Positions 1,427 through 64,000 of a DNA stretch of 64,000 bases are shown here, one piece after another. The notes beneath the pieces are model-generated. The model was not told the origin of the DNA. It worked only from the letters and a program-made list of their open reading frames with translations, and searched no databases. The DNA lies in contig CALXWJ010000005.1 in the NCBI GenBank assembly GCA_944392335.1, forward strand, positions 9 through 64,008, given 5' to 3'. Numbering within the stretch: the stretch's first letter is position 1; each line of letters begins with the position of its first letter. The translations under genes and the position numbers were made by a program. The stretch is from an uncultured Clostridia bacterium (GTDB taxonomy: Bacteria; Bacillota; Clostridia; UBA1381).

Positions 1427-1671
1427 TATAACCTAAGTGCAGATGCCCCCCGCCGTTATCGGCGGCGGGTTCTATATTTTAATCAGTGAGAGTTCAATCT
1501 CTCACTGATTACAGCGCAGGCGTTGCGTGTGTTCTTGTCCTCGCCCAAGACGGGGCAAGCCCCTTATTGAATCTCCCGCCGAAACCCTGAGGAGCTAACG
1601 CTCCCTGCACAGGTTGCAATCTGTCGCAATTTCTGCTCCTTGCAAGCAAAACAGGAGCGTTGCTCCGATTT
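1427..1671 (+). repeat. Structured intergenic repeat, copy 1 (long form: about 145-nt core 1427-1571 plus 100-nt 3' extension 1572-1671)
   Basis: Starts TATAAC. Contains hairpins CCGCCG-TTAT-CGGCGG and TAATCAGTGAGAG-TTCAAT-CTCTCACTGATTA plus the CTTGTCC..GGGGCAAG stem, and ends CCTTATTGAA. The extension is near-identical to 60456-60555. Confidence 0.9.
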
Positions 1672-1681
1672 GAAATATATG

Positions 1682-8188: not shown

Positions 8189-8191
8189 GAA

Positions 8192-8286: not shown

Positions 8287-8295
8287 GTTTTATAA

Positions 8296-8413
8296 AAGAC
8301 GCGAACAGCAATTACATATTTTATATTACTGAATATTGACCTGATGACCGGTACTTGCTTTCGGGGCAAGCGAGGGTGATGTAAATGTCATCACATGTAA
8401 AAAAGCGCGTCTT
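8296..8413 (+). ncRNA. Stem-closed RNA module D
   Basis: Closing stem AAGACGCG / CGCGTCTT with an ACAGCAAT box. Internal hairpins CTTGC..GCAAG and GTGATG-TAAATGT-CATCAC, plus a GAGGGTGATG box. Confidence 0.45.
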
Positions 8414-8420
8414 GTAATTA

Positions 8421-8533
8421 AAGGCATCTACAGCAATGAATTGGAAAGATATGTCGGAGCACATCCATTGCCGCGATCGGTAACACTTGACACCGACGAA
8501 CTATTATACGGGTTCAAATCCCGGTGATGCCTT
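8421..8533 (+). ncRNA. tRNA-mimic RNA module E (YrlA-like candidate)
   Basis: Closing stem AAGGCATC / GATGCCTT with an ACAGCAAT box. Canonical T-arm CGGG-TTCAAAT-CCCG (8509-8523) sits directly before the 3' strand of the closing stem. The module ends 31 nt before the rtcB ATG. Confidence 0.6.
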
Positions 8534-8564
8534 GCAGAAAAAATGTGCAGAAAGGAGCAGCACA

Positions 8565-9773
8565 ATGTTTGAAATCAAAGGAAAATCAAATACCGCGATA
8601 TGCTATGCTACAGTAGTTGAAGATGAAGCCATTGAGCAGATCCGGAGAATGTGTGACTATGATTTTACAAGCGGATCCAAGATCCGGATTATGCCGGATG
8701 TCCATGCCGGAAAGGGATGTACAATCGGTACTACTATGACGATTACAGACAAAGCAGTACCCAACATCGTCGGCGTCGATATAGGATGCGGCATGTATAC
8801 CGTGGAGCTCGGACAGGTCAATATTGATTTTGAGAAAGTAGACGAAGCTGCTCACTTTATTCCCGGCGGCAGAGATGTCTGGGAGGGCCGTATGGAGCGT
8901 TTCGATCTTACCGGCCTTTGCTGTTATAGAAATTTGAAGAATACAAAGCGTCTGGAAAGGAGTTTGGGTACTTTAGGCGGCGGCAACCATTTTATCGAGA
9001 TAGACGCTTCATCAGACGGCACCAAATATCTGGTTATACACTCCGGCAGCCGTAACTTGGGTAAGCAGGTCGCTGAGTATTATCAGCAGCTTGCCATTGA
9101 CCTGAATTCCGGAAAGGAAGACTACTTTAAAAAGAAAGATGAGCTGATACTTACTTATAAAGAGCAAGGCCGTCGTGCGGAGATTCAGACTGCTTTGAAG
9201 GCTATGGAAAAGGAGTGGCAAGCAAAAGAGCCTACTATTCCTGCAGATCTTTGCTACCTTTACGATTCCTATCTGGAGGATTATTTGCACGATGTTGAGA
9301 TCTGCCAGCAGTTTGCAAAGCGCAGCCGTGAAAGAATGGCACAGATCATCTTAGAGCATACCGGAATGGCTGCTCTGTCAGCGTTTCACACAATACATAA
9401 TTATATCGATACTGAGGAGATGATCCTGCGTAAGGGCGCAATTTCTGCACATAAAGATGAGCTTGTTTTGATCCCTATCAATATGAGGGACGGAAGCGTG
9501 CTGGCAAGAGGAAAGGGAAATCCTGATTGGAACTTCTCCGCGCCGCATGGCGCCGGCAGGATCATGTCAAGAGCCAAGGCAAGGGAGACGCTTGACCCGG
9601 AGGAATACAAGATGACAATGGAAGGTATTTATACCACTTCCGTAAATGAAGCAACAATCGACGAAGCGCCGATGGCGTATAAGTCTCTTGCCGATATCAT
9701 AGGTGATATCCGGGAGTCCGTCGATGTGGTAGAAATTTTGAAACCTATTTATAACTTTAAGGCGTCGGACTAA
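8565..9773 (+). CDS. rtcB: RtcB-family RNA 3'-phosphate/2',3'-cyclic phosphate ligase
   Basis: Motifs MPDVHAGKG, GVDIGCGM, GGGNHFIE, HSGSRNLG and PHGAGR. Start set to ATG 8565 (MFEIKG...) behind RBS AAAGGAG; the ORF-track extension from 8487 runs through RNA module E. Confidence 0.92.
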   Translation: MFEIKGKSNTAICYATVVEDEAIEQIRRMCDYDFTSGSKIRIMPDVHAGKGCTIGTTMTITDKAVPNIVGVDIGCGMYTVELGQVNIDFEKVDEAAHFIPGGRDVWEGRMERFDLTGLCCYRNLKNTKRLERSLGTLGGGNHFIEIDASSDGTKYLVIHSGSRNLGKQVAEYYQQLAIDLNSGKEDYFKKKDELILTYKEQGRRAEIQTALKAMEKEWQAKEPTIPADLCYLYDSYLEDYLHDVEICQQFAKRSRERMAQIILEHTGMAALSAFHTIHNYIDTEEMILRKGAISAHKDELVLIPINMRDGSVLARGKGNPDWNFSAPHGAGRIMSRAKARETLDPEEYKMTMEGIYTTSVNEATIDEAPMAYKSLADIIGDIRESVDVVEILKPIYNFKASD

Positions 9774-9810
9774 TGGATTCTGACGGGCTGTATATGAACG
9801 GAGGGAAAAA

Positions 9811-11274
9811 ATGTTAAACTATTTGAAAGAAGAATCTGATATGACTCTGACCGAAAACGGTGCAGCAGCCTATAAAAGCACCTCATCCTGTTGTTTGGAT
9901 CTGTTTGCCGTCATTGGTGCAATCCGCAGAGAGTCTGAGAAGGAGATCATTGACCGGTTTATAAAGGCGTATGCTGAGAACAGCGATATCGCGATGAAAA
10001 TCCTGTTTTTCGGCCGTGATGTGCGCGGAGGTTTGGGTGAGCGCCGGGTGTTTCGTGTTATCCTGAACTGGCTGGCAGATCACGAGCCGGAGTCTTTGCG
10101 TAAAAATATCGCATTGATTCCGGAGTACGGCCGATTTGATGACCTGGCGTCCTTGATTGGTACTGCATGCGAGGAGGATGCAATGAAGGTGATCCGTGAT
10201 CAGTTAAAAAAGGATATGGAGAAAGATGCAGAGGTTTCTTTACTTGCAAAATGGCTTCCTTCTGTCAACGCGACCAACAAGGAGACTGTACATATTGGTA
10301 AACGAATCGCCCGTTATCTTGGCATGAGCGATGCTCAGTATCGTAAGACCCTCGTGGGGCTGCGCAAAAAAATCCATATCGTGGAGAACAACCTGCGTGA
10401 AAAAGATTACTCTTTTGACTACTCCAAGCAGCCGTCAAAAGCAATGTTTAAGTATCGAAAAGCGTTTGCAAGAAACGACGGTGAGCGTTACCGGCAGTTT
10501 CTGGAGCAGGTGCAAAACGGTACAGCCACCATACATACCGGTACTTTGATGCCGTATGATATCATCGCTCCATGCTTTGGAGACTTGTCTGCAAGACGCA
10601 GAATACCTGAATCCGAACGCAGAGCAATGGATGTTTCATGGAATTCTTTAGAGGATTTCGGTACAAACGAGAATGCTCTCGTAGTTGTTGACGGTTCAGG
10701 TTCTATGTATGCCTATGACGGGCCTATGCCGATAGCAGTGGCATTGTCTTTGGGAATTTATTTTGCAGAGCGTAATACCGGAGTATTTCGTAACCATTTT
10801 ATTACTTTTTCCGAAAGACCTCAGTTGGTGGAGATCAAAGGAAGGGATATAGTTGAAAAGGTCAGGTACTGTGCTGAGTATAATGAGGTCGCAAACACTA
10901 ATCTTCAAGCTGTGTTCGAGCTGATTTTAAAGGCTGCGGTAAAACATTCTGTTTTGCAGGAGGAGATGCCTAAAAAGCTTTATATCGTTTCGGATATGGA
11001 GTTTGATAGTTGTATATGCAAAGCAGATGTCACCAACTTTTCATATGCGAAGAAGTTATTTGAAGACAATGGATACCATTTGCCTGAGATAGTGTTTTGG
11101 AATGTGGCAAGCAGAAATAGGCAGCAGCCTGTCACAAAAAATGAGATGGGTGTGGCGCTTGTTTCGGGCTGTACCCCAAGACTCTTTTCAATGGTAGCCG
11201 GTGGCGCAGCTTCCCCTTATACCGTGATGATGGAGATCATCGAGTCAGAGCGTTATGCGGTTATTTCCGCATAA
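9811..11274 (+). CDS. DUF2828-like protein with C-terminal vWA domain (possible divergent Ro/TROVE analogue)
   Basis: N-terminus LTENGAAAYKSTSSCCLDLF and FGRDVRGGLGER match my recollection of the DUF2828 family. MIDAS-like VVVDGSGSM at mid-protein, and VSDMEFD. RBS GGAGGG upstream. Confidence 0.65.
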   Translation: MLNYLKEESDMTLTENGAAAYKSTSSCCLDLFAVIGAIRRESEKEIIDRFIKAYAENSDIAMKILFFGRDVRGGLGERRVFRVILNWLADHEPESLRKNIALIPEYGRFDDLASLIGTACEEDAMKVIRDQLKKDMEKDAEVSLLAKWLPSVNATNKETVHIGKRIARYLGMSDAQYRKTLVGLRKKIHIVENNLREKDYSFDYSKQPSKAMFKYRKAFARNDGERYRQFLEQVQNGTATIHTGTLMPYDIIAPCFGDLSARRRIPESERRAMDVSWNSLEDFGTNENALVVVDGSGSMYAYDGPMPIAVALSLGIYFAERNTGVFRNHFITFSERPQLVEIKGRDIVEKVRYCAEYNEVANTNLQAVFELILKAAVKHSVLQEEMPKKLYIVSDMEFDSCICKADVTNFSYAKKLFEDNGYHLPEIVFWNVASRNRQQPVTKNEMGVALVSGCTPRLFSMVAGGAASPYTVMMEIIESERYAVISA

Positions 11275-16062: not shown

Positions 16063-16118
16063 GTAACTATACCACAAAAAAGTGCTTACTTTACAAAAAA
16101 AACTGTTTAAAGTATAAT
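16063..16118 (+). promoter_or_regulatory. 35-bp shared box (16063-16097) overlapping promoter TTTACA-17 nt-TATAAT of the macro/SirTM operon
   Basis: 33/35 nt identical to 17837-17871. The -35 lies inside the box with the same geometry at both sites. Confidence 0.5.
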
Positions 16119-17836: not shown

Positions 17837-17892
17837 GTAACTACAGCACAAAAAAGTGCTTACTTTACAAATAGAATAAAAGCTGTTATACT
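17837..17892 (+). promoter_or_regulatory. Second copy of the 35-bp box (17837-17871) overlapping promoter TTTACA-17 nt-TATACT
   Basis: See 16063-16118. The box sits upstream of the 17944 gene. Confidence 0.5.
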
Positions 17893-17943: not shown

Positions 17944-18741
17944 ATGAACAAAAACACATTTACAAAAATCAATTTAACAAAAGGTGAGGTCAATGTATAC
18001 GATTTCGGAGAACTGAAACTCCATGCGTATAAAACAAACGACTTGATCGACGATGAGGTATTTATAGTAGAAAAAAACTTAAAAGCGGTCGTTATTGAAT
18101 CTCCTTGTTTTTTTGATAACAATTCAGAGCTTGAAAAATATATTGCTGATAACGGCATGAATGTGCAGGGTATGCTGTTGGCATATCATATGGCAGGGGC
18201 GGGATTTTTGCCCAATGTAAAGAAGTATGCCACAAAAAATGCTGATGAATATGGTCACAGCGGCGGCGGTAAAGGTCTAATTGATAACTTCACAAATGCA
18301 TTTGGAGATATTTTCGACAACAGTATTCACACAATTACCGATTATATTGAGGAAGGCACGATAACAATCGGCGGTATCAAGCTTAATATTACACAGACGC
18401 AAGAAGCCTATGATATTGAAATCCCCGAAATCAATGCGGTATATACGCATATGCTCGGTCATGACTGCCATTCCATTGTTGCCGGTATGGGTCATGCCGA
18501 CGCGATTATCAATCAGCTTAATACTTATTTGGAAAAAGGGTATACACTGATACTTACTTCACACTATACGCCGGAAGATTTGAAGGATGTAAAAACAAAA
18601 ATCGCATATTTGGATAATCTGAAAGCGATCGCGGGAAAATGCGGCAATGCGCAGGAATTTAAAGAAGAGGTTCAAAGGCAATATCCTCAATACAGCGGTG
18701 AAAATTATCTGGATATGACGGCGGGATTCTTCTTCGCATGA
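17944..18741 (+). CDS. Hypothetical protein (weak resemblance to an MBL-fold hydrolase)
   Basis: 265-aa ORF with a good RBS (AAGGAG). His/Asp-rich segments (HMLGHDCH, GMGHAD) but no clean HxHxDH motif, so function is uncertain. Confidence 0.45.
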   Translation: MNKNTFTKINLTKGEVNVYDFGELKLHAYKTNDLIDDEVFIVEKNLKAVVIESPCFFDNNSELEKYIADNGMNVQGMLLAYHMAGAGFLPNVKKYATKNADEYGHSGGGKGLIDNFTNAFGDIFDNSIHTITDYIEEGTITIGGIKLNITQTQEAYDIEIPEINAVYTHMLGHDCHSIVAGMGHADAIINQLNTYLEKGYTLILTSHYTPEDLKDVKTKIAYLDNLKAIAGKCGNAQEFKEEVQRQYPQYSGENYLDMTAGFFFA

Positions 18742-18859: not shown

Positions 18860-19002
18860 TATAACTGCGGACAAGATGTCCGCCGCCGTAATCGGCGGGG
18901 GTTGCATATTTGTAATCAGTGAGAGTACAATTTCCCGCTGATTACAGCAAAGCACAGCCTGCGCGCTTGTCCTCGTCCAAGATGGGACAAGCCCTTATTG
19001 AA
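18860..19002 (+). repeat. Structured intergenic repeat, copy 2
   Basis: TATAACTGCGGACAAGATGTCC.. then H1 CCGCCG-TAAT-CGGCGG and H2 TAATCAG..CTGATTA, ending ..GGGACAAGCCCTTATTGAA. Confidence 0.9.
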
Positions 19003-29689: not shown

Positions 29690-29834
29690 TCTAACTGTGG
29701 ATAAGATATCCCCCCGCCTCTGCCGGCGGCGGATTCCATATGTGTAATCAGTGAGAGTACAATCTTCCGCTGATTACAGCAAAGCACAGCCTGCGCTTTT
29801 GGCCTCGCCCAAGACGGGACAAGCCCTTATTGAA
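29690..29834 (+). repeat. Structured intergenic repeat, copy 3
   Basis: ..CTAACTGTGGATAAGATATCC.. then the H1, H2 and H4 hairpins, ending GGGACAAGCCCTTATTGAA. Confidence 0.9.
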
Positions 29835-32044: not shown

Positions 32045-32581
32045 ATGAGAATAGTCGTTTTAGAAGGAAGTCCTAATAAGAAAGGTTCTTCAAATATTTT
32101 GGCGGACTGCTTCCGCCAAGGTGCGGAGGAGGCCGGTCACACTGTTGAGATCATTGACACAGCCTATGCCGATATCCACCCCTGTACCGGATGTATCCAC
32201 TGTGGATACGAAGGCCCCTGCGTGCAGAAGGACGATGTAGAGAGCATTCGAAAGAAGATTCTGGATGCAGACATGATGGTATTTGTCACTCCGCTGTATT
32301 ACTATGGGATGTCTGCCCAGCTGAAAACTATGATCGACCGGTTCTGTGCATTTAATAGCTCCATCCAGCGCAAGCATATGAAGTCTGCCTTGCTTACCGT
32401 CGCATGGAACAGTGATGATTGGACATTTGAGGTGTTGGAAGCGCATTATAAGACCTTAGTACGGTACTTAAATCTTGAGGACATGGGCATGGTGCTGGGT
32501 ATCGGCTGCGGTGCACCATCCATGACCCAGCACTCCGAGTTTCCGCAGCAGGCGTACAATTTAGGAAACCGCTTAAAGTAA
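32045..32581 (+). CDS. NAD(P)H-dependent FMN reductase / iron-sulfur flavoprotein-like flavodoxin-family protein
   Basis: MRIVVLEGSPNKKGSSN.., Cys cluster CTGCIHC..C, and VFVTPLYYYGMSAQLK. ATG 32045 follows AAGGAGG. Confidence 0.75.
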   Translation: MRIVVLEGSPNKKGSSNILADCFRQGAEEAGHTVEIIDTAYADIHPCTGCIHCGYEGPCVQKDDVESIRKKILDADMMVFVTPLYYYGMSAQLKTMIDRFCAFNSSIQRKHMKSALLTVAWNSDDWTFEVLEAHYKTLVRYLNLEDMGMVLGIGCGAPSMTQHSEFPQQAYNLGNRLK

Positions 32582-32585
32582 GGCA

Positions 32586-32682
32586 GTTATTATATCAGTG
32601 TGAGAGTACAATATCCCGCTGATTACAGCGCTGCTGTGCAGTGCTCTTGTCCTCTCCCAAGACGGGTCAAGCCCTTATTGAA
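32586..32682 (+). repeat. Structured intergenic repeat, copy 4 (5'-truncated, lacks H1)
   Basis: ATCAGTGTGAGAGTACAATATCCCGCTGATTACAGC...CTTGTCCTCTCCCAAGACGGGTCAAGCCCTTATTGAA. Confidence 0.85.
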
Positions 32683-34154: not shown

Positions 34155-34323
34155 TTCAATAAGGGCTTGTCCCGTCTTGGGCGAAGACAAGAGCGAAACA
34201 GGCGATTCGTGAATCGCTCCTATGGTGCTGCGCTGTAATCAGTGGAAGATTGTATTTTCACTGATTACAAATATGGAACCTGCCGTCGATTACAGCGGGG
34301 GGGACAACATGTGCGCAGTTATA
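34155..34323 (-). repeat. Structured intergenic repeat, copy 5 (inverted orientation, about 30-nt insertion in the variable middle)
   Basis: The reverse complement reads TATAACTGCGCACATGTTGTCC...TAATCAGTGAAAATACAATCTTCCACTGATTA...GGGACAAGCCCTTATTGAA. The extra palindrome GGCGATTCGTGAATCGCC lies in the middle. Confidence 0.9.
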
Positions 34324-36800: not shown

Positions 36801-36882
36801 ATAAAAAACTACGAGGATGCCATAACGATGTACGTAAAGGGCGTCCATCCAAAAAAGAATCAAAATAAGAGAGGTGTTAAAA

Positions 36883-38682
36883 TTGAAAAAATTGTTATCC
36901 TTGCTTTTATGCATATCATTATGCATTTGCGGTATCATTGGCTGCGCAGCAGAAGGTACGGATAATTTGACGATTGTTCTTCAAATAAATGATCCTGTAA
37001 TGCTTGTAAATGGAGTGGAACAGGAGATCGACCCCGGAAGAGGAACAACGCCTATCATTCAAAATGACAGAACGCTTCTGCCGATCCGTGCGGTAGTTGA
37101 GGAAATGGGAGGCAGCGTAGGCTGGGACGAAGAGGCACAAGAAGCAACGCTTACGTTAGGTGAAGATATCATTCGCCTTACAATAGGCAGTACAACTGCT
37201 TATGTAAATGATGAAGCACATACGCTTGATGTTGCGCCGATCGTGGTGAATGATCGAACGATGCTTCCTATCCGTTTTATTGCAGAGAGCTTTCAGTTTG
37301 ATGTAGCGTGGGATAATGCCGCGCGAGAAGTTCAAATTACAAAGATCCCCGAATCATCCGGTACTACGGTACCGGTCGAAGACGATGATATGGTGCTGAT
37401 CAGCGGAGGGACGTTTACCATGGGAAGCCCCGAAAATGAAGCAGAACGTGATACTGACGAAGTGCAGCACGAGGTAACCGTCAGCGACTTTTATATTGCA
37501 AGAACAGAGCTGACACAGGAAGAATACCAAGCGGTCATGGGCAATAATCCCAGCGAAAACCAGGGAGGAAATCTGCCTGTTGAAAATATAACATGGTATG
37601 ATGCAATCGAGTATTGTAATGCATTGAGTGAAGCAGAGGGCCTTACTCCCTGTTATACTGTCACTGACAGCACGGTGGTATGGGACAGAAGTGCGGATGG
37701 ATACCGCTTGCCCACAGAAGCAGAATGGGAATATGCCGCAAGAGCAAATACCGAAACGCCGTTTCATTTCGGCGATTATGTATATGATGAAAATGCAAAT
37801 TGCTACAATGCCTACGGTTATAACAACAACGCAAGCGGAAGCTGGGTAAACGGGTACATTTCCCATACCGTAGACGTTACGGATTATGAACCAAATGCGT
37901 ATGGATTATACAATATCCATGGTAATGCGGCTGAGTGGGTATGGGATTGGTACGGTGCGTACAACATACAAGAAACTGAGGATCCCACAGGGCCGGAGCC
38001 GGGCAATTATAAAATTGCACGGGGCGGCGGATGGAACGATTTTCCAAAGCATATCCGCAGCGCATACCGCAGTGCTTATCCGGCAGACGCCCCTCTTTAC
38101 AGCATTGGCATGCGTTTGGTGAGAAACGCAGAACCTATACAGGAAACTGTGACAAGTACAAATACTGCAACTGCTGTGAGTAACGGCAGCACATTGATTG
38201 TTTACTTCTCACAGACTGGTAACACGGAAGGTTTAGCGGAAATTATTGCAGAGATGACGGGCGCAGATGTGTTCCGTATTGAGCGTGAAACGCCATATTC
38301 ATCAACGCAGAATTCACAGGGCTTATACGCAGAGGCATTGACGGAGTATAGAGAGAACGCGATTCCGAATCTGCGTACTTATTTAGAGGACGAGGGTCTT
38401 GATATCAATCAATATGATACGATTTTACTCGGCTATTGCAACTGGTGGGCATCCATTCCGGCACCGGTGCGCAGTTTCTTAACACATTACGATTTGAGCG
38501 GTAAAACAATTATTCCGTTTTGCAGTATGGGAGGCGGACGTTTTGGTCAGACGATCAGCGCAGTTGCAAAGCTTGCTCCCGACAGTACTATTAAAGCAGG
38601 ATTGGATATTACATATTCTTCATATGACAGGGATAAAATTGCGCAATGGCTTACACAAAGCGGAATAGAAATTATAAATTAA
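36883..38682 (+). CDS. Exported tri-domain protein: copper-amine-oxidase-N-like stalk repeats + FGE/SUMF1-type domain + flavodoxin-like domain
   Basis: Signal/lipobox IIGCA. Stalk-domain repeats (..NDRTLLPIRAVVEEMGG.., ..NDRTMLPIRFIAESF..). FGE-sulfatase-like core (MVLISGGTFTMGSP.., RLPTEAEWEYAAR, RGGGW). C-terminal TLIVYFSQTGNT..LGYCNWWASIP..FCSMGGG. TTG start at 36883 is preferred over GTG 36874 because of RBS spacing. Confidence 0.75.
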   Translation: MKKLLSLLLCISLCICGIIGCAAEGTDNLTIVLQINDPVMLVNGVEQEIDPGRGTTPIIQNDRTLLPIRAVVEEMGGSVGWDEEAQEATLTLGEDIIRLTIGSTTAYVNDEAHTLDVAPIVVNDRTMLPIRFIAESFQFDVAWDNAAREVQITKIPESSGTTVPVEDDDMVLISGGTFTMGSPENEAERDTDEVQHEVTVSDFYIARTELTQEEYQAVMGNNPSENQGGNLPVENITWYDAIEYCNALSEAEGLTPCYTVTDSTVVWDRSADGYRLPTEAEWEYAARANTETPFHFGDYVYDENANCYNAYGYNNNASGSWVNGYISHTVDVTDYEPNAYGLYNIHGNAAEWVWDWYGAYNIQETEDPTGPEPGNYKIARGGGWNDFPKHIRSAYRSAYPADAPLYSIGMRLVRNAEPIQETVTSTNTATAVSNGSTLIVYFSQTGNTEGLAEIIAEMTGADVFRIERETPYSSTQNSQGLYAEALTEYRENAIPNLRTYLEDEGLDINQYDTILLGYCNWWASIPAPVRSFLTHYDLSGKTIIPFCSMGGGRFGQTISAVAKLAPDSTIKAGLDITYSSYDRDKIAQWLTQSGIEIIN

Positions 38683-38698
38683 ATAACAGGAGGAAACT

Positions 38699-39076
38699 GA
38701 AGTAAAAAAAATTTCATCTTTGTTGATTACCGTCAATGTACTGATGATAAATCTGTGCGGTGTTGTGCAGGCGGCGGAAACCTTTGAGGCTGTTTTGTAA
38801 ATAGATAATCTAATAATGAAAGTAAATGGCGTGGAAAAAGAAATCAATCCCGGGAGAGGGACAACGCCTATCATTCAAAACGGCAGAACGCTTCTGCCGA
38901 TCCGTGCACCGGTCGAGGAAATCGGCGGCAGCGCAAGCTGGGACGAAGATGAACAGGGAGCAACGCTGCATAGCTGTGCTTCCTTATTGAATATAGCAAA
39001 GCACAGGAATATCAAGTGGTGTAAAAAATCGTCCAGAGCGTTCACGGGCAAAAAGCTTGATTGTACTTGCTTTTAA
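38699..39076 (+). pseudogene. Decayed partial duplicate of the stalk-domain N-terminus of the upstream gene
   Basis: A signal-peptide-like reading frame without a start codon, an in-frame stop, then ..NGVEKEINPGRGTTPIIQNGRTLLPIRAPVEEIGGSASWDEDEQGATL. About 38825-38967 is highly similar at nucleotide level to about 37009-37152. The reading frame then degenerates. Confidence 0.6.
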
Positions 39077-40488: not shown

Positions 40489-40752
40489 ACATCGCAATGT
40501 TCTGCCGGACTTTGTTTTCGGTCCAAGTCGGATAAGGTGACGAGTGCGCTCGGTTATTTTAACAATAATCGAGCGCACTTTTTATTTTATAAGGAGGATG
40601 AGATTTTATGAAAACAAGAAAAAATTTAATTTACATTATCATCGGTGTTATCACAGCAATGGCATCAATATCCGGGATAATATACATTATATATTCCCGT
40701 AAGAAAACATCTGTCTGCACCAATGATTCAGAGGTGGGATCATGAACACTGT

Positions 40753-40897
40753 TATAGCTGCGCACATGTTGTCCCCCGCCGTAATCGGCGGCGGGTTCCA
40801 TATTTGTAATCAGTGAGAGTACAATCTCCCACTGATTACAGCAAAGCACAGCCTGCGCTCTTGTCCTAGTTGAATGACAGGACAAGCCCTTATTGAA
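40753..40897 (+). repeat. Structured intergenic repeat, copy 6
   Basis: TATAGCTGCGCACATGTTGTCC, then CCGCCG-TAAT-CGGCGG and TAATCAGTGAGAG-TACAAT-CTCCCACTGATTA. H4 CTTGTCC-TAGTTGAATGACA-GGACAAG has a different loop but keeps the stem. Ends CCCTTATTGAA. Confidence 0.9.
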
Positions 40898-40939: not shown

Positions 40940-42667
40940 ATGTTAAAACTAATTAAATTTCTGTCACCATATAAAGGCAGGGTGACAGCCATGCTTATTT
41001 TACTTTTTTTACAGGTGTTGGGAACGTTGTATATTCCTACCCTGACAGCCGATATTGTTAACAACGGCATTGTAGCCGGAGATCTTAACCACATTTGGAA
41101 AATCGGCGGATTTATGCTGGCGGTGGCTGTTTCCATTGCAGCGGTTTCCCTTACGGAAACCTATTTGTCTACTACCATATTTTCAAGAATGGGCCGAGAT
41201 ATCCGCAACGCGCTGTTTGAAAAGTCGCAGAAGCTGACTATTGACCAGTTCAATCAGTTTGGCCCTGCATCTATGATCACCCGCAGCACCAACGACATTA
41301 TGCAGATCCAGATGGCCTACATGGCCGGAACGGAGATGATTCTACCCGCCCCTATTATGACCATAGCGGGACTCTTTCTTGCCTTTTCCAAAAGCCCAGC
41401 TCTTGCAATGGTTATTGTCGTTGCCATGCTGGTAGTCTGCATATTTACTATTTTTCTTGCCGCAAAGGTTATGCCGCTGTTTTCCAAGCTGCAAGCTCTG
41501 CTAGATAAGATCAACCGCACTCTGCGTGAAATGCTTACAGGAATCCGGGTGATCCGTGCCTTCAACCGCTCTAAATTTGAGCAGGAGCGTACTGATAAAT
41601 CCTTTGTTGATTATGCGCAGAGCGCCATTCGTATTAATAAAATTTTTGCTGTGATGATGCCGGTTATTATGTTGATTATGAATATCTGCACAGTCATTAT
41701 CTTGGCAAACGGCGGCCAGCAGGTTGCCGATGGCGCGATGGAGATCGGCGACATCATGGCTCTGACAGAGTATGCTATTATGATCCTGATGTACCTCATT
41801 ATGGGCATTATGGTCTTTATGATCTTCCCAAGAGCGCAGTCCTGCGCCAACCGTGTCAACGAGGTGCTGGCTGTCAACACAGATACGGCTAAAAGCCGGC
41901 AAAATCCCCGGCAACATTTTGCCAAAGCCAAGCTGGAATTCCGCAATGTTACCTTCCAGTACAAAGGTGCCGAGGAACCGGTGCTTAACAATATCAGCTT
42001 TACGGCGGACATTGGTAAAACAACAGCGATTATCGGCGGCACCGGTTCAGGTAAATCCACCATTGCAAACCTGATCCCTCGTTTTTATGATATACAAAGC
42101 GGTACGATCCGAATCGACGGGGTGAATATCCTGCGTATGTCCAAGCAGGTTCTGCGGGATAAGATCGGTTTTGTACCACAGAAGGCATTTCTGTTCAGCG
42201 GCACCATTCTGGATAATTTCCACCACGGGAAAAAGGACGCGACTATGGAAGAAATCCGCCACGCAGCCGAAATTGCACAGATCGGCGATTTCATTGAAGG
42301 GCTGGAGGACGGGTACAACACTCGCGTCGCCCAAGGTGGTAACAACTTCTCCGGCGGTCAGAAGCAGCGCCTGGCCATTGCACGTGCTCTGGTGAAGAAA
42401 CCGGAAATTTATATTTTTGACGACAGCTTCTCGGCGCTGGACTTTAAAACAGACGCAAAGCTGCGTGCAGCCTTGAAAGGCGAAGTAACAAATGCCGCAG
42501 TCATTCTGGTTGCCCAGCGTATCAGCACGATAATGGATGCTGACCAGATTGTCGTACTGGATGAGGGACGGGTAGCCGGGATTGGCACACATAAAGAGCT
42601 GATGGAATCCTGCACTGTTTACCGGCAGATTGCACGTTCGCAGCTCAGTGAGGAGGAATTAGTATGA
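40940..42667 (+). CDS. ABC exporter half-transporter (TMD-NBD), partner 1
   Basis: NBD motifs GGTGSGKST, FSGGQKQRLAIARA and IYIFDDSFS. Confidence 0.9.
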   Translation: MLKLIKFLSPYKGRVTAMLILLFLQVLGTLYIPTLTADIVNNGIVAGDLNHIWKIGGFMLAVAVSIAAVSLTETYLSTTIFSRMGRDIRNALFEKSQKLTIDQFNQFGPASMITRSTNDIMQIQMAYMAGTEMILPAPIMTIAGLFLAFSKSPALAMVIVVAMLVVCIFTIFLAAKVMPLFSKLQALLDKINRTLREMLTGIRVIRAFNRSKFEQERTDKSFVDYAQSAIRINKIFAVMMPVIMLIMNICTVIILANGGQQVADGAMEIGDIMALTEYAIMILMYLIMGIMVFMIFPRAQSCANRVNEVLAVNTDTAKSRQNPRQHFAKAKLEFRNVTFQYKGAEEPVLNNISFTADIGKTTAIIGGTGSGKSTIANLIPRFYDIQSGTIRIDGVNILRMSKQVLRDKIGFVPQKAFLFSGTILDNFHHGKKDATMEEIRHAAEIAQIGDFIEGLEDGYNTRVAQGGNNFSGGQKQRLAIARALVKKPEIYIFDDSFSALDFKTDAKLRAALKGEVTNAAVILVAQRISTIMDADQIVVLDEGRVAGIGTHKELMESCTVYRQIARSQLSEEELV

Positions 42668-44511
42668 GTATGGAAAAAGATACCCGTGAAACAACGGTAG
42701 ATACCTTTGATAATGATATGAGCGCGGAAAGGGCGAAAAATGTCAAAGGCACGGCGCTCCGGCTGTTAAAAAAGCTGATGGAGCAAAAATGGAAGCTGCT
42801 GGTAATCGTCCTCAGTATCATTGTAAGCTCCCTGTTTAACATTCTGTCCCCGAAGGTGATGGGAATCGCCATCAACGACATTTTTGACGGTGTTAAAAAT
42901 GCCGTTGCAAACGGACAGGCTTTTCAGGTGAATCTGGAAACAATGGGGGTTGTCCTGCTGGGACTTCTGGGGCTATATCTGCTGTCATCGCTGTTTTCGT
43001 ATATTCAGCAGAACACCATGGCCAGCGTTTCCCAGACGCTGACCCTTACCCTTCGCCGGGAAATCAGCGCCAAGCTGAACCGTTTGCCTTTGCGTTATTT
43101 TGATCAGCATAAAAAAGGCGAAGTATTGAGCCGCGCTACCAGCGACCTTGAAAAAGTGGCCGATACCCTGCAGGAAGGTTTGTCACAGTTGGTAACCGCG
43201 TTTTTTGGTATTGTAGGAGCTTTCGTGATGATGCTGCTGATCAGCCCTACACTTACTTTGATTGCGCTGGGCACTATTTTTGTCAGTCTGATTGTCGCTG
43301 CACTGGTATCGGGTCGAACGCACCGCTACTTTGCCGCTAATCAAGAGGCGCTTGGACGTCTCAACAGCAGCATTGAAGAAAGTTTTACAGGAAATATTGT
43401 GATAAAGGCCTTTAACTTGGAACAATCGACTGTGGATAACACGAAAGTACTCAACGAGAATTTGTTCCGTGCCAGTAAAAAGGCAATGTTTATGAATTAT
43501 ATGATCAGCCCGATCATCCGTTTAATCAATCAATTTGGTTATGTAGCTGTAGCGGTCGGCGGTGCTTTATCAGTTATACGCGGTACGATCTCCATTGGCG
43601 ATATTCAGGCGTTTATTCAGTATGTCAATCAGGCTTCGGAACCGGTTACACAGATTTCCTACACCGTAAACTCTCTTCAAGGCGCTATCGCCGCGGCAGA
43701 GCGTGTGTTTCAGTTGCTGGATGAAGAGGAGGAAATACCTGACGCGGTCAGACCTGTAAGAATAGATGCTCCAAAAGGTAATGTACGTTTTGAACATGTC
43801 CGTTTTGGTTACAGCGACGACCATATCCTGATGCAGGACATTTCTTTCGATGTGAAAGCAGGAAGTAAAATTGCTATTGTCGGCCCCACAGGTGCAGGCA
43901 AGACCACCCTTGTCAATCTGTTGATGCGCTTTTATGAACTGCAGGGCGGACGTATTACCATAGATGGTGCGGACATTTCCAAGATGACGCGCAGCCACCT
44001 GCGTTCTCTGATGGGAATGGTATTGCAGGACACGTGGCTGTTTGGCGGGTCGATTCGTGACAATATTGCGTACAGCAAGGAAAACGCCACGGACGAGGAA
44101 GTATATAAGGCGGCAAAAGCAGCCCGGGCCGATCACTTTATCCGCACTATGCCCGACGGCTACAGCACTGTTTTGAGCGATGAAATTGCCAGCCTGTCAC
44201 AGGGACAGCGGCAGCTTCTTACTATTGCCCGTGCGATTCTTGCCGATCCTGCTATCCTGATTCTGGATGAGGCGACCTCCAGCGTAGACACACGCACAGA
44301 ATTAGAAATCCAGAAAGCAATGGACGCGCTGATGAAGGGACGTACCAGCTTCATTATCGCCCACCGGCTTTCTACTATCAGGGATGCCGATCATATCCTT
44401 GTGATGAAGGACGGTACAATTATTGAGCAAGGAAATCACGATGAATTGATGAAGCTGGGCAAATTCTACGCCGACCTATACAACAGTCAATTTGCTTCAA
44501 AAGCCGGATAA
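42664..44511 (+). CDS. ABC exporter half-transporter (TMD-NBD), partner 2
   Basis: NBD motifs GPTGAGKTT, LSQGQRQLLTIARA and ILILDEATS. Overlaps the upstream gene by 4 nt. Confidence 0.9.
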   Translation: MSMEKDTRETTVDTFDNDMSAERAKNVKGTALRLLKKLMEQKWKLLVIVLSIIVSSLFNILSPKVMGIAINDIFDGVKNAVANGQAFQVNLETMGVVLLGLLGLYLLSSLFSYIQQNTMASVSQTLTLTLRREISAKLNRLPLRYFDQHKKGEVLSRATSDLEKVADTLQEGLSQLVTAFFGIVGAFVMMLLISPTLTLIALGTIFVSLIVAALVSGRTHRYFAANQEALGRLNSSIEESFTGNIVIKAFNLEQSTVDNTKVLNENLFRASKKAMFMNYMISPIIRLINQFGYVAVAVGGALSVIRGTISIGDIQAFIQYVNQASEPVTQISYTVNSLQGAIAAAERVFQLLDEEEEIPDAVRPVRIDAPKGNVRFEHVRFGYSDDHILMQDISFDVKAGSKIAIVGPTGAGKTTLVNLLMRFYELQGGRITIDGADISKMTRSHLRSLMGMVLQDTWLFGGSIRDNIAYSKENATDEEVYKAAKAARADHFIRTMPDGYSTVLSDEIASLSQGQRQLLTIARAILADPAILILDEATSSVDTRTELEIQKAMDALMKGRTSFIIAHRLSTIRDADHILVMKDGTIIEQGNHDELMKLGKFYADLYNSQFASKAG

Positions 44512-52108: not shown

Positions 52109-52244
52109 ATGATCATCTCCCGGGTGTAAATTTAAGAATTTTGTTATTCTTATTAAATATATACCCATTTTTTTCATTTTTAAACATTTTTATATTGAAA
52201 TTTTTTAAAAATTTTAGTATAATTTTAAAATAAGAATAAACTAC

Positions 52245-52386
52245 TATAACTGTGGATAAAAATCCCTCCCTCTGTAAGCGACAGGCGCCGTATTTGCAGT
52301 CAGTGCGAGAGTATGGTATCCCCTGTATTACACCGCTGCTATGCAGCGCTCTTGCCCTTGTTGAATAACCTGACAACCTTATTGAA
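52245..52386 (+). repeat. Structured intergenic repeat, copy 7 (degenerate)
   Basis: TATAACTGTGGATAAAAATCC...CAGTGCGAGAGTATGGTATCCCCTG...CTCTTGCCCTTGTTGAATAACCTGACAACCTTATTGAA. Same order of modules with many substitutions. Confidence 0.7.
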
Positions 52387-55400: not shown

Positions 55401-55460
55401 ATAGATCCAAGATACGTGGATCTGTTTTTGAGATGGTTTGATAGTTGGGTATTGATATAA
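52434..55460 (+). CDS. Double GT-C-fold membrane glycosyltransferase (N-terminal DUF2029/PIG-V-like module + central beta-sandwich-like insert + C-terminal GT39/PMT-like module)
   Basis: About 20 or more TM helices. The N-half has a QFTDYPPGYMY loop. The central soluble region is about 150 aa. The C-half has YFDEVYHARTGYEF..WTHPPLGK (PMT loop-1 DE motif) and a PMT C-terminal TM bundle. Confidence 0.75.
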   Translation: MLISSVLTALYVVFCIFILNYIIKKDKSIKPKVNVFVFSAVIGLILRIIIGYIIPGHSTDMGCFSSWADMLYKDGISAFYESDQFTDYPPGYMYILTLLGYIKNTFNAAAGLSNVIIKLPAMLADILTGFFIYRISCRKFTKGAAQIIGSIYIFNPAAIINCAAWGQVDSVYLFIVIGALYLLSEKKMIFSYIIFGLAVIFKPQALIFTPVFIFDAFSGLYNSTNRGRYTVKIIISLTAALIFAVLLIMPFGINNVLRQYIDTLSSYPYATVNAFNVWALAGMNWFELNGVITMIGYAFILLICVFAGIIFYKIKDKSKYFITAAFLCFATYMLSVKMHERYAFCAMALILLGFCYQNQRKNFLLYIFLTVSQVVNVAWILFVYDKDTSKYYQSAFVYIASFVNVVIFVYMIICLIKNADSRLFAPPPINNYIKSEKKITVTRKDVVLIAVITAVYSVIALFNLGSREAPETGEYMESGDEIIIEFDKMYDISKFCLFNGVKPIDEDNILKVSLYDENNQFLKAFELDDCEVFVWHFQPVEGLWTRYVKIEAQKTTEIKEMAFFDAFDTKIDLSACTDLKIADEQDIVPKRESYYNSAYFDEVYHARTGYEFINGIDVYEWTHPPLGKIFIALGIKIFGMTPFGWRIAGTVFGILMLPFIYLFAKKLTKKTWLSAITCIIFAFDFMHFTQTRIATIDVYITFFVILMYYFMYSYYNTSFYDTKLSKTFVPLLLSGVCFGLGVACKWTGIYAGAGLCVLFFMTIHKRFKEYIFAKERMETEEDRYIAENFIKKTLETFAFCVFAFILIPVIIYMLSYIPYLRCEGGGLEAIIKNQKDMFIYHSQTVLDATHPYSSKWYEWIIMKRPIWYYSGTINENLKEGISAFGNPLVWWCGIPAVLFMIYSAAIKKDVKAIFIVTGYFAQLIPWLFVDRVVFIYHYFPCTVFLVLAIAYSIKLLYDKNRIFKKIAVIYAFAAVFMFVMFYPVLSGLAIDPRYVDLFLRWFDSWVLI

Positions 55461-55600
55461 CCCAAGGAAAGATGTCCCCGTTGTAATCGGCGGCGGGTTC
55501 CATATCTGTAATCGGTGTGAGAGTATGAGCTTGCGCTGATTACAGAGCAGCACGGCAGTGTTCTTGCTCTCGTTGAATAACGGGACAAGCCCTTATTGAA
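55456..55600 (+). repeat. Structured intergenic repeat, copy 8
   Basis: TATAAC overlaps the GT-C stop codon. H1 is CCGTTG-TAAT-CGGCGG (G-U pairs) and H2 is TAATCGGTGTGAGAG..GCGCTGATTA. Ends GGGACAAGCCCTTATTGAA. Confidence 0.88.
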
Positions 55601-60203: not shown

Positions 60204-60235
60204 ACGGATGATTATTAAAATCATCCGTTTTTTTC
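60204..60235 (+). terminator. Intrinsic terminator after the sugar ABC operon
   Basis: ACGGATGA-loop-TCATCCGT followed by T7. Confidence 0.75.
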
Positions 60236-60237: not shown

Positions 60238-60555
60238 TATAATCTAAGTGCAGATGTCCCCTGCCGTTATCGGCGGCGGGTTCCATTTCAGAATTTCAGT
60301 GGGAGGTATAACTGCTGACAAGATGTTCCCCCCCCTGCCGTTATCGGCAGTGGGTTCCATATTGTAATCAGTGAGAGTTCAATCTCTCACTGATTACAGC
60401 GCAGGTGTTGCCTGCGCTCTTGTCCTCGCCCCAGACGGGGCAAGTTCCTATTGAATCTCCCACTCAAACCCTGAGGAGCTAACGCTCCCCGCACAGGCTG
60501 CAATCTGTCGCAATCTCTGCTCCTTGCAAGCAAAGCGGGAGCGTTGCTCCGATTT
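60238..60555 (+). repeat. Structured intergenic repeat, copy 9 (long form with nested/tandem partial 5' copy)
   Basis: 60238-60315 is a partial copy (H1 plus a truncated H2). It is followed by a complete core (about 60312-60455, starting TATAACTGCTGACAAGATGTTCC) and the 100-nt extension 60456-60555, which matches 1572-1671. Confidence 0.9.
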
Positions 60556-60581
60556 AAAAATGTATTTTGTATAAATAATTT

Positions 60582-62348
60582 CTAAACTGCAATAAAGTTA
60601 TCATTGGATTTTGTTATTATAGGAATTATTATTTTTACAGTTGTAACATTATCTGCAGAAGTTATTGAACATCCGTAATCATTACCGAATATAAGTTTAA
60701 TTCTTTGGTTTACATTTCTCAGCCCGATATGATTATTTTCGGGGATATCATCAACGCAGATAAGTGACTGCTGAATTTCAATAAGGCGTTGAGGAGGTAT
60801 GGTGGGGCCGTTATTTGTAACGGCAAATACAATATTTGAATTTTCTGTTTTAGCCGAAATGGTAATGATACCATTTTCATTTCGTAACAGTTTAACTCCG
60901 TGAGTTATTGCATTTTCTATTATGGGCTGCAAAATCATTTTAAGAGTATAATATTCATATATATTATCATCTATATCAAAAATAAAATCTATAGAATTGG
61001 CATGTTTAATGTTTTCTATTTCAATATATTTTTGAGTAGTGTCAAGTTCTTCTTTGATTTTTATAATAAAGTTTTTTGTATTAAGACATGAACGCAATAT
61101 ATCTGAGAGCTTGTCTATAATAACAACAAGCGGACTGTCACCCTGTCCTGATTCAAGAGCATAACTCGCAATTAAATTTAATGAGTTAAAAAGAAAATGA
61201 GGATTGATTTGTGTTTGCAGTGCTAAGGCTTGATATTTTTTTAGTTTTTGGATTTTATCCGCGAGTGAATCTTTGGACTTATCATCACAGTCAACTCTTG
61301 ACATCATGTTTTTTGTCAAATATACAAATTCACTGTATGAGTTATTGTCAGACGACGGCATTTCAATATAAGCAAAAGCATTGGAAATGGAATTATATAA
61401 CTTAAAAGTCCCTGCTATTGATAATACCGCCAATGCCAAAAATATAAACAAAAAATATAAGATCGTATTGGTTATAAAAGGATAAAATGCAGTAAAATAT
61501 ATCATTTTTGTCACTGAATATACAAGGATATAGTTTTCATATATCAATCTTGTTGACATGCATACATAATCCGAATTTTTGCTTATTTCATAGCTGCCGT
61601 ACCGGCTTTTTTGAATATCAGGAAGATCACTTAAAATATTATCGTCGGATGACATTATAAATTTTCCTTCATTGTCTGTAAGCAGAAGCGTTCCTGAAGA
61701 AGAATTTATTCCTGTTAATGAAGGGAGAAGCTTTTCAATATTAATATTAAAAAATACGGCGCCTTCGTTATTATATCCTTTATTTACAATATAACATAAA
61801 GTCATAATATTGTTTTTCCCTAATTTCCTGGCAGTTACACAACTGATACCATTACAGTTTTTGTAAATGGTATAACATTCGGAATCATAAAAATGATGTG
61901 AGAAATTACTGTTTTCGCTCGATAGGAAATAATCATTTGTTTTACTGTATATATGAATGGAATCAAGATAATTTAATGAAATATTTGTATTAATAAGCTG
62001 ATCAATAATTTCAGAGCTTGAGGTATATGTATTGTAACCGTTATCTTGTAAAAAAAAGTCATTCAGCAGAAATGTTTTAACATTACTGTTTGAAATTATA
62101 GATTCATAGTTTTTGTACAAAACATCAAATAACGTATCAAGAGCGGTTACGCTTCGTGACAAAATTTCAGTTGAACTGTATTTGAATGCAGCTTCGGTTG
62201 AACGTAAATTATATATAAATAAAACAATGTAAAAAAGTATAAAGGGGATTGTAAGTATACCGAACAACCCTTTCCAATAGTGTTTGAAAAGACTGTTTTT
62301 TGTATATTCAAAAAAATCATAATGTTTTTTTTTAAAAAACTTATTCAT
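60582..62348 (-). CDS. Sensor histidine kinase (YesM-like, LytS/YehU-type His-kinase domain)
   Basis: Two TM helices flank an extracytoplasmic domain, followed by QINPHFLFNSLN (H box) and an HATPase_c domain. Confidence 0.85.
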   Translation of the reverse strand: MNKFFKKKHYDFFEYTKNSLFKHYWKGLFGILTIPFILFYIVLFIYNLRSTEAAFKYSSTEILSRSVTALDTLFDVLYKNYESIISNSNVKTFLLNDFFLQDNGYNTYTSSSEIIDQLINTNISLNYLDSIHIYSKTNDYFLSSENSNFSHHFYDSECYTIYKNCNGISCVTARKLGKNNIMTLCYIVNKGYNNEGAVFFNINIEKLLPSLTGINSSSGTLLLTDNEGKFIMSSDDNILSDLPDIQKSRYGSYEISKNSDYVCMSTRLIYENYILVYSVTKMIYFTAFYPFITNTILYFLFIFLALAVLSIAGTFKLYNSISNAFAYIEMPSSDNNSYSEFVYLTKNMMSRVDCDDKSKDSLADKIQKLKKYQALALQTQINPHFLFNSLNLIASYALESGQGDSPLVVIIDKLSDILRSCLNTKNFIIKIKEELDTTQKYIEIENIKHANSIDFIFDIDDNIYEYYTLKMILQPIIENAITHGVKLLRNENGIITISAKTENSNIVFAVTNNGPTIPPQRLIEIQQSLICVDDIPENNHIGLRNVNQRIKLIFGNDYGCSITSADNVTTVKIIIPIITKSNDNFIAV

Positions 62349-63802
62349 TAATTTTCTCCTCTATATTTCTTTCTGTACTCCAAAGGTGTAAGCCCTGTTG
62401 CATTTTTAAATATTTTATAAAAATAATTTGTATCCCGAAAGCCGGACATTTCAGCAACATCAGGGATTTTGACATTTGTATCTTTTAGAAGCTGACGTGC
62501 TTTCTGAAGCTTTACGTTGGCAAGATAATCGCTGTATTTTTCCCCGGTTTGCTTTTTAAAATAAGAACTAAAATATATAGGGTTTAAAAATACATGTTTT
62601 GCCACATCATTTAAGGTAATATCATTTGCAAAATTATTATTGATAAACCGGCAGGCATTTTCTATAATATCATCCCTTGAATTGTTTGAAAGGCTGTCAT
62701 ATTTAATATTATTAATTTCCGAAATAACTGTATTTAACAGTTTTTCAGATGAGCAGTCATCAATAATAATATTCTTTTTCGTATAATTTGAAATATGAGA
62801 TAATATATGATTATATACAAGCTTTGACTGGTTTTCGTCAAAAATAGCTTTTATGGCTTCCGCACATCGTATTGCAGCATCAAAATCATTATTGTAAATA
62901 TATGATATTATATTTTTTGCCTGCTCTTCACATGTATAATATTGGCGTTGAGCTTTGTTAAATTCGTCTATATTATTAAAAAAGTTAAGGGCTTTGATGT
63001 CAACCGTCGTTTTAAGAATATTTTTAATATCCTGAATGATATCTTGAATATAAGCTGATACAGTATCTTTAAATTCATCCATATTTGTTTGCATTTTACT
63101 GAAAATAAAAACAGTTATAACATTTGAGGAATAATTAAACAGTACGCAATATATGCTTGAATTGTTCCGTGCAACTATTTTTGCGGCGATTTGATATAAT
63201 TCATCTTTTGAATGCGAAGGTTTTTCTTTGAGTAAATCAAACAGACCGTTAAGAATAAGAGAAACTGCTGAACACATACATGTATCATAACTTAAAACCA
63301 CATCATTTTTTTTCATTTCCTCAAAAAATTCATTATAATTTCCGTAAAAATTTGAGAGCAAGTTTAAAATGGTCTGCTGACGGTTTAAGTTTACCAATGA
63401 TGCAACGAATCCTTCCGGTTTTTCATCACGTGAGATCCTTTTCGATAGCTTATTTAAAAGAACTTCAAGCTTTGATAGTGTTATTGGTTTTAAAACATAA
63501 TGGACTACTTCTAAATCTATAGCTTTTTGCGCATATTCAAAATTATCATATGCACTTAAAATTGCAAATTTAATATTGGGGTAATGTTTATGACAATATT
63601 CACACAATTCAATACCCGTCATTTCGGGCAGCTGAATATCGGTTATAATTGCATCTACCGCATTGTTTTTTAAATATTCAATGGCATCGCTCGGGTGCGT
63701 AAATGCGGCAACAACTTCAAAATCATTTCGAATACCTGATAAAATCTTATTTAATTGGCGAAGAACTTGAATATCATCTTCAATAAGCATAATTTTAAAC
63801 AT
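62348..63802 (-). CDS. Response regulator with AraC-type HTH output (YesN-like)
   Basis: N-terminal receiver domain (MLIEDD..DAIITDIQLPEMTG) and C-terminal AraC HTH (..DVAEMSGFRDTNYFYKIFKNATGLTP). The stop/start overlaps the kinase gene by 1 nt. Confidence 0.88.
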   Translation of the reverse strand: MFKIMLIEDDIQVLRQLNKILSGIRNDFEVVAAFTHPSDAIEYLKNNAVDAIITDIQLPEMTGIELCEYCHKHYPNIKFAILSAYDNFEYAQKAIDLEVVHYVLKPITLSKLEVLLNKLSKRISRDEKPEGFVASLVNLNRQQTILNLLSNFYGNYNEFFEEMKKNDVVLSYDTCMCSAVSLILNGLFDLLKEKPSHSKDELYQIAAKIVARNNSSIYCVLFNYSSNVITVFIFSKMQTNMDEFKDTVSAYIQDIIQDIKNILKTTVDIKALNFFNNIDEFNKAQRQYYTCEEQAKNIISYIYNNDFDAAIRCAEAIKAIFDENQSKLVYNHILSHISNYTKKNIIIDDCSSEKLLNTVISEINNIKYDSLSNNSRDDIIENACRFINNNFANDITLNDVAKHVFLNPIYFSSYFKKQTGEKYSDYLANVKLQKARQLLKDTNVKIPDVAEMSGFRDTNYFYKIFKNATGLTPLEYRKKYRGEN

Positions 63803-64000
63803 TGATAAAAATCCCTGCCTTTCATAAGAATGTAATATTCATAAAAAATAATGGTCATAATATCAGAAATATTAAAAATAATAAAACATTTCATAAGACA
63901 GGTACAAGGATTTTTATACGTAAATTAAAATCCTTGCACCATTTAAAAATCAAATATTAACATATAGCACAGTTTAAAAATCAAATTTTTATAAAACATA

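Follow-up and report, generated by a model that had tools for sequence, protein, structure and literature searches.

Copy 6 of a family of short repeats lies between a MarR terminator and the next start codon, that of an ABC transporter gene, in a 64,000-nt stretch of DNA from an uncultured Clostridia bacterium (hereafter the window). With this copy (40753-40897) as the blastn query against the window, nine loci were recovered with E values from 1e-8 to 1e-49, all of which align to one another along their entire length. A covariance model built from the window loci scored them at 84-162 bits per locus and found nothing further of full length there. All nine loci listed in an earlier, sequence-only reading of this DNA were therefore recovered by both methods, and its description of the copies as intergenic and structured was borne out. 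Two further copies come from other contigs of the same species. One, on L094, was traced through a spurious open reading frame call: a search with a profile of the element's open minus-strand frame gave two proteins and this one new copy. The other, copy 10, measures 124 nt, lacks the first hairpin (H1) and lies between frr and uppS. The sample comprises 12 copies in all (Table 1).

The copies are not genes. Across the element the reading frames are disrupted by indels, which leaves no sign of small-peptide coding, and P0001, a 72-aa “protein” called over copy 6 (40631-40885, minus strand) in at least seven metagenome assemblies, is the translated repeat. The genes flanking the copies are unrelated to one another. 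The only transposase in the window belongs to the IS6 family of DDE enzymes (DDE_Tnp_IS240; 86-817) and is encoded 600 nt upstream of locus 1, with no sign of a link to the repeats.

Several other features of the window were recorded. An apparent RNA-repair cluster at 5772-11274 contains WYL-domain and WCX-domain proteins, an RtcB ligase (8487-9773) and a DUF2828/DUF7788 protein; just upstream of rtcB there is a tRNA-like Rfam match (8212-8274, 40.9 bits, model positions 5-66), at which ARAGORN calls no tRNA. A 177-nt direct repeat with 81% identity is found at 36975-37151 and 38791-38967, the second copy being part of a short open reading frame (38816-39076) with a partial Cu_amine_oxidN1 domain, which looks like a duplicated piece of gene 36874-38682, from its 5' part. 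A 40-nt repeat, 90% identical (GTAACTA..CACAAAAAAGTGCTTACTTTACAAA; 16063-16102 and 17837-17876), precedes a macro-domain gene and gene 17944-18741, respectively, and may be a shared regulatory site.

Table 1. Positions of the repeat copies, their parts and the associated signals
Feature	Position	Strand	Description
Copy 6, target motif (TAM)	40753..40757	+	TATAG, variant of TATAA
Copy 6, type B	40758..40897	+	140 nt; MarR terminator 40542-40580, ABC transporter start 40940
Copy 6, variable linker	40758-40772
Copy 6, H1	40773-40795
Copy 6, H2	40805-40840
Copy 6, H3 region	40841-40858
Copy 6, H4	40860-40886
Copy 6, terminal TTGAA	40893-40897
Locus 1, composite	1427..1674	+	TATAA, A-type left end fused to B-type H2-H4 (to 1571)
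Locus 1, A-type 3' module	1572-~1674	+	ends GATTTGAA
Copy 2	18860..19002	+	TATAA plus 138-nt element, 93 nt upstream of MBOAT gene
Copy 3	29690..29834	+	target TCTAA; between divergent MarR and LysR genes
Copy 4	32582..32682	+	5'-truncated, begins in the 3' arm of H1; adjoins FMN-reductase stop codon (32579-32581)
Copy 5	34155..34323	-	sole minus-strand copy in the window; target TATAA 34319-34323 (minus strand)
PMT promoter	52195-52223		TTGAAA-17-TATAAT
Copy 7, degenerate	52245..52386	+	after TATAA, ~22 nt downstream of the conserved PMT promoter
Copy 8	55456..55600	+	TATAA 55456-55460 is the native PMT end incl. TAA stop; insert 55461-55600
Locus 9	60238..60558	+	type-A element with a type-B copy inside
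Locus 9, type A, left piece	60238-60311		left end, 5' arm of H2, TATAA loop
Locus 9, type-B copy (9b)	60312-60455		inserted after the loop TATAA
Locus 9, type A, right piece	60456-~60558		3' arm of H2 and 3' module
Copy 10	L106 2986-3114		just past the right end of the window; L106 - strand = window + strand

Hairpin anatomy and the nested loci

The repeat had been described as a unit of about 145 nt. The repeat itself stands, but its opening TATAA is the host target, and the inserted unit measures 140 nt (e.g. 55461-55600). Hairpins H1, H2 and H4 are real, as indicated by the minimum free energy (MFE) z-scores of copy 6 against shuffled controls, which are -6.2 for the top and -8.7 for the bottom strand with RNA parameters, and -6.0 and -7.1 with DNA parameters; folding thus beats the controls by far on both strands with either set. 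Between H2 and H4 a variable segment of about 20 nt had been reported. Its sequence does change, but the segment itself folds as a hairpin, H3, whose sequence varies by subfamily: it reads GCGCTGC/GCAGYGC in copies 4 and 7 and GCGCAGGT/GCCTGCGC in copy 9b, and in copy 5 it is a longer hairpin, GCGATTC-ACG-GAATCGC. Likewise, the H4 loop of copy 6, previously taken as a replacement, does differ but is a subfamily variant that copies 7 and 8 share and to which the loop of the L094 copy is related. An alternative pairing proposed for the GACAAG motifs near the two ends did not survive inspection of all copies, since only copies 2 and 9b have the exact 5' motif (copy 3 reads GATAAG), which is hence not conserved.

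The element occurs in two types with a common left end and different right-end hairpins. Type B is the standard form, of ~140 nt, and its H2 loops read TACAAT, TTCAAT or TATG.., never TATAA. Type A, of ~185 nt, has the same left ~70 nt, an H2 of its own and a different 3' module of ~105 nt ending in GATTT[G/A]AA. Loci 1 and 9, which had been listed as plain copies, do exist but are both composites of the two types. At locus 9, where the target of the A element directly follows a terminator (60204-60228), a standard B copy sits after the TATAA that forms the loop of the H2 of A, and removing 60312-60455 restores a 12-bp hairpin, TTTCAGTGGGAG-GTATAAT-CTCCCACTCAAA. Locus 1 can be aligned with locus 9 over its full length, the one gap being a 74-nt deletion between the two direct left-end repeats, and the extensions of the two loci are 92% identical. 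This alignment shows that the composite itself was copied to a second site, one that also starts with TATAA.

The surroundings of locus 9 differ among assemblies. L106 and L107, two independent assemblies of this species, agree with the window at 99.9% identity over 60457-64000. Below 60457 they join the inverted 3' half of a copy-5-like element at the H2 palindrome (L106 8130-8430; L107 8240-8402), and then carry a transglutaminase gene in place of copy 9b, 9a and perm2. Other assemblies of the species lend no support to the join of perm2, copy 9 and a histidine kinase, and the difference reflects either a strain rearrangement with its breakpoint at or near the H2 palindrome or a chimera in one assembly.

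Insertion sites, empty sites and strand

Every copy was inserted precisely at the 3' edge of a host 5'-TATAA-3', without duplication, and ends in 5'-TTGAA-3'. The clearest case is copy 8, for which the gene order S30AE(-), PMT(+), FumA(+) is kept in relatives. The PMT-FumA spacer measures 222 nt in the window vs 82 nt in the sister species (83%; NCBI MAG GCA_034101885.1 plus one Logan contig), and the difference of 140 nt is exactly copy 8 minus its TATAA. Ten of the 14 relatives checked end PMT in ...SWVL[LI]*; therefore the ATA TAA end of the window gene (...GTA TTG ATA TAA) is native host sequence, and the empty site of the sister species reads ...AATATAA|TGACTG. The copy thus lies immediately 3' of a pre-existing TATAA, and nothing is duplicated. 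Copies 7 and 8 are missing from both sister loci (L095, L096), which are fully syntenic; at the site of copy 7 they have AATAA|TAA. The comparison of filled and empty orthologous sites that the sequence-only reading had suggested accordingly yields precise empty sites for copies 7 and 8, and no target duplication was seen at either junction.

In nine of 14 relatives the PMT-FumA spacer is 10-22 nt long, and it ranges from 39 to 211 nt in the other five. A 75-nt spacer in L007 (8895-8972) contains a long palindrome unrelated to the repeat family, and a 211-nt spacer in L012 (9354-9567) contains an unrelated structured insert; with these inserts of other species, the junction seems to be a recurrent landing site. 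For copy 6, an orthologous empty site was sought through the downstream ABC transporter gene (40940-42667, the first of an adjacent pair spanning 40940-44511 of the window) and was not found, the closest homologues (87-92% identical) lying in unrelated contexts. These homologues are also paired, some of them near an IS110-family transposase and an integrase (L098, L099), and their occurrence as pairs in unrelated contexts suggests a horizontally moving cassette.

Over the whole sample, TATAA is the 5'-adjacent pentamer in 9/11 insertion sites, the exceptions being TCTAA and TATAG, and the first element base is C in ten of the 11. TTGAA forms the 3' end of every B copy and is unlike TATAA at two positions; the host base that follows it is T in 9/12 cases. 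The element ends, TATAAC... and ...TTATTGAA, are non-complementary, so that there are no terminal inverted repeats. The earlier observation that inverted ends, target duplication and an adjacent transposase are all lacking was confirmed. That the repeats are mobile insertions after TATAA is very likely.

Insertion signatures of the kind that would make the family a plain MITE are therefore largely present, but they are of a single-strand type without terminal inverted repeats (TIR) or target-site duplication (TSD), and not of the DDE type. Classical bacterial MITEs end in inverted repeats and are usually flanked by a duplication of TA or of a longer sequence. Correia/NEMIS, ERIC, RUP, BOX and bcr1 elements are 100-200 nt long, intergenic and folded, often overlap stop codons and are co-transcribed with their neighbours, and the present family resembles them in size, intergenic position and folding, but the inverted ends and the duplication are absent here. 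REPs, in turn, span 20-40 nt, bear a conserved tetranucleotide as their head and come singly or in inverted doublets. Small, intergenic, palindrome-rich and multi-copy as the repeats are, they might be classical MITEs of the DDE type or palindromes of the REP/BIME type that a RAYT has spread, and REP/BIME with RAYT (TnpA-REP) offer a parallel as high-copy intergenic palindromes handled as single-stranded DNA (ssDNA) by HUH Y1 enzymes. Both readings are highly improbable. The exact empty sites show no duplication, and the only DDE transposase of the window is the IS6-family enzyme (86-817), 600 nt from copy 1. The repeats have no GTAG-type head; they are 140-nt units in which four distinct hairpins are combined with a defined target motif and a defined terminus, instead of a 20-40-nt palindrome or doublet, and the window contains no RAYT gene.

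The insertions also favour one strand of the chromosome. Ten of the 11 insertion events (copies 1-4, 6-8, 9a, 9b and 10) are on the + strand, copy 5 being the sole exception. The earlier statement that eight of nine copies are co-oriented with the flanking genes holds for the DNA strand, on which eight of the nine do lie, but not for the genes, since copies 3 and 7 are between divergent genes and copy 9 is between convergent ones. Copy 10 is antisense to the pyrH-frr-uppS-cdsA operon and yet on the common strand; orientation therefore follows the chromosome strand and not transcription. TATAA is equally frequent on the two strands of intergenic DNA (50 vs 47), which means that target supply does not explain the bias. 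GC skew is positive over almost the whole window, and thus, with replication direction inferred from skew only, the + strand is the leading-strand sequence and corresponds to the lagging-strand template. An orientation bias towards the lagging-strand template is therefore present, as a modest statistic from a small sample whose replication direction is taken from skew.

The family appears to be confined to this lineage. Proteins identical to those of the window are found only in a few ENA metagenome assemblies (BRZ_N*, ONAT22), and in the nearest species representatives the fumarase is only ~76% identical. The covariance model found no copy in ~840 kb of fumarase loci of relatives, in the loci of the sister species or in the loci of the ABC-transporter homologues; the only matches in these loci, of ~18 bits, fall inside a coding gene and are not copies. 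The repeat is absent from about 1 Mb of syntenic DNA of relatives. Exact-pattern scans with the H2 hairpin, the left end and the right end found none in 185,579 species genomes, JGI metagenomes and IMG/VR, a single match in L097 being a chance one inside a coding gene. A blastn search of plasmids and phages with copy 6 and the long form returned nothing meaningful, a search for records of the exact protein products of the left edge of the window, made in the hope of more copies, found none, and the literature searched contained nothing relevant on literal repeat sequence strings or on TATAA with TnpB or IS605. As the sequence-only reading had anticipated, there is no Rfam match either: only tRNA matches reach the gathering score in Rfam 15, permissive scans give sub-threshold chance matches (miRNA and similar), and likewise nothing was found in any sequence collection searched. 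The best explanation is that the elements have recently multiplied in one uncultured gut Clostridia lineage.

Folding on both strands and a possible RNA role

The strong predicted structure, together with the position of several copies within mRNAs, would fit a structured non-coding or cis-regulatory RNA, whose transcript folds and acts as a terminator or antiterminator, a stabiliser or an sRNA. Copy 7 follows a conserved promoter and copy 8 is located at an operon junction, and from such promoter-proximal and operon-junction positions several copies must be transcribed passively. Copy 9 comes just after a terminator. Copies 5 and 10, on the other hand, are antisense to neighbouring genes, and the neighbours of the family as a whole have nothing in common, which also counts against a regulatory RNA. 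In the sister species the corresponding genes have no copy beside them, and their regulation can therefore do without the family. As for a terminator, the T-run expected after H4 is absent and no hairpin has a terminator-like T-run behind it, and the search for an internal sigma-70 promoter gave merely weak 9-of-12 promoter-like matches in the element.

An RNA-level structure had been argued from substitutions that keep the hairpins only as G-U pairs on the element strand. The single examples are correct, but the argument fails when all stems are counted. With the core stems H1, H2 and H4 defined in ten aligned copies without favouring either strand, the stem cells comprise 240 Watson-Crick, 23 G·T, 19 A·C and 18 other pairs, and since G·T and A·C are so nearly equal there is no excess of mismatches tolerated on the element strand only. 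The consensus H2 itself holds an A·C pair, which is G·U on the opposite strand, and the opposite strand has the lower RNA MFE in six of the ten copies. G·T pairs are tolerated in single-stranded DNA hairpins too, so that even a true excess cannot separate RNA from ssDNA, and leading-strand C-to-T mutation pressure would by itself yield a G·T excess.

The covariation that had been proposed as a check is weak. Five pairs are changed on both sides vs 2.4 in shuffles, and the covariation score is equalled in 6/500 shuffles, a level that unconstrained related sequences often reach. A few compensatory changes speak for the RNA reading, namely H1 C-G to T-A in copy 9b (T·G in 9a) and H2 G-C to A-T in copy 5. 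Taken with the symmetry of the mismatches and the better folding of the other strand, they leave a selected RNA quite improbable.

Routes of mobilisation

The geometry of insertion was read directly from filled and empty sites; from it we infer an enzyme that moves the elements by the single-strand peel-and-paste of IS200/IS605-type (HUH, Y1) transposons, a reading towards which we lean. Subterminal hairpins of the top strand would be recognised by a transposase whose gene lies elsewhere in the genome, the candidate hairpins being H1 on the left side and H4, which stands 11 nt before the right end. Cleavage by this enzyme after TATAA and after TTGAA would free a single-stranded circle, which would then be pasted after a TATAA exposed as ssDNA, on the lagging-strand template or in hairpin loops. 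The hairpins would thus primarily be recognition and structure elements at the DNA level, and any effects on read-through RNAs, in 5' UTRs and at operon junctions, would be secondary.

The family shares many features with IS200/IS605 elements (IS608, ISDra2, ISGst) and with their gene-less copies, which are documented and are called PATEs, for palindrome-associated transposable elements (PMC10055086). Like them, it inserts 3' of an unduplicated motif of 4-5 nt, has no inverted ends and leaves scarless empty sites. The target-adjacent and transposon-encoded motifs (TAM and TEM) of IS200/IS605 elements differ at two positions (PMC10055086), and the internal terminal motif is likewise two bases off the target here (TTGAA/TATAA). 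The left hairpin of IS608 is 19 nt and the right one 10 nt from the cut (PMC3597680, PMC5934647), and here H1 follows a variable linker of 15-20 nt and H4 lies 11 nt from the right cut. An orientation bias for the lagging-strand template is documented for the IS200/IS605 family (PMC5027513), which matches the bias seen here. One copy of the present family, moreover, is inserted in a hairpin loop, in agreement with a single-stranded target. Taken together, these features make up the signature published for peel-and-paste transposition of IS200/IS605 elements and for their PATEs (PMC10055086, PMC5027513, PMC3597680, PMC5934647).

There are also differences. The repeat family has no known cognate transposase, and neither the window nor ~30 kb of contigs from the same species yielded a Y1 transposase, a TnpB or a complete element bounded by these ends. 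A TATAA target has no report for IS200/IS605 in the literature searched, and none of the elements in the collections searched is similar to the repeats in sequence. In IS608 and ISDra2 the left and right hairpins resemble each other, whereas H1 and H4 are unlike each other here. The subterminal palindromes thus stand at IS608-like distances but differ in sequence, the right hairpins of types A and B differ as well, and copy 10 has no H1; the occurrence of two types with one left end and unlike right ends is a further departure from IS200/IS605. A single-strand element class with unlike ends, moved by an enzyme other than a Y1 transposase, is a further, unlikely reading. The guide-target pairing rule of IS608 is not a simple complement (PMC3597680, PMC5934647). 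In the present repeats ATATT stands just 5' of the foot of H2 and GATGT/GATAT stands 5' of H1, and it is speculation that these motifs take part in an IS608-like guide-target pairing.

Other machinery without terminal inverted repeats is rather unlikely, whether an IS91/ISCR-like rolling-circle enzyme (Y2 HUH) or an IS110-type recombinase acting on a 2-nt core. The one left end with two right ends, A and B, recalls rolling-circle elements that acquire new terminators, and the junctions TATAA|C...TTGAA|T have AA in common, which fits a core exchange with TAT-AA-T as the target and TTG-AA-C as the donor junction. IS110 elements, however, typically have longer, highly specific targets. Only 5-6 nt are conserved here (TATAA and a weak +1 T) and the 3' flanks are unrelated, so that the very short target argues against an IS110-type mechanism; the long target (>10 nt) on both sides of a 2-nt core that a bridge-RNA system would show is not seen. 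The window contains no gene for such machinery. The strand bias and the insertion in a loop suggest that the target is single-stranded, but they do not discriminate between Y1 and Y2.

An unlikely extension of the IS200/IS605-type reading concerns the right ~95 nt of the element, from H2-H3-H4 to TTGAA, which might serve as an omega-RNA-like guide scaffold for a TnpB/IscB-type nuclease supplied in trans and so secure retention of the copies. Transcripts of the individual copies would run into the respective 3' flanks and end there, and these RNAs would program the nuclease, with TATAA as TAM, to cut emptied sites. The omega RNAs of TnpB and IscB are similar in being structured RNAs of ~100-150 nt that end at the right boundary of the transposon, with the target motif as TAM (PMC10055086); they differ in that for the present repeats nothing points to transcription, to an associated TnpB gene or to a resemblance with any known scaffold, and the parallel is purely a possibility.

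The family is real and previously undescribed, and is best placed in an established group, the non-autonomous transposons of the single-strand type without terminal inverted repeats, and not in a new class of RNA. It represents a recent burst of such an element, confined to one uncultured gut lineage, that accounts for ~2.5% of the window and lands in promoter-proximal and operon-junction sites of housekeeping genes. It also accounts for several spurious small open reading frame calls, such as P0001, and for at least one assembly breakpoint or strain rearrangement. The finding is otherwise an ordinary one, but a partner transposase or nuclease with a TATAA motif, if found, would add a new specificity to the IS200/IS605/TnpB toolbox, and the guide-scaffold reading, if true, would make the repeat a 140-nt parasite that secures its own retention.
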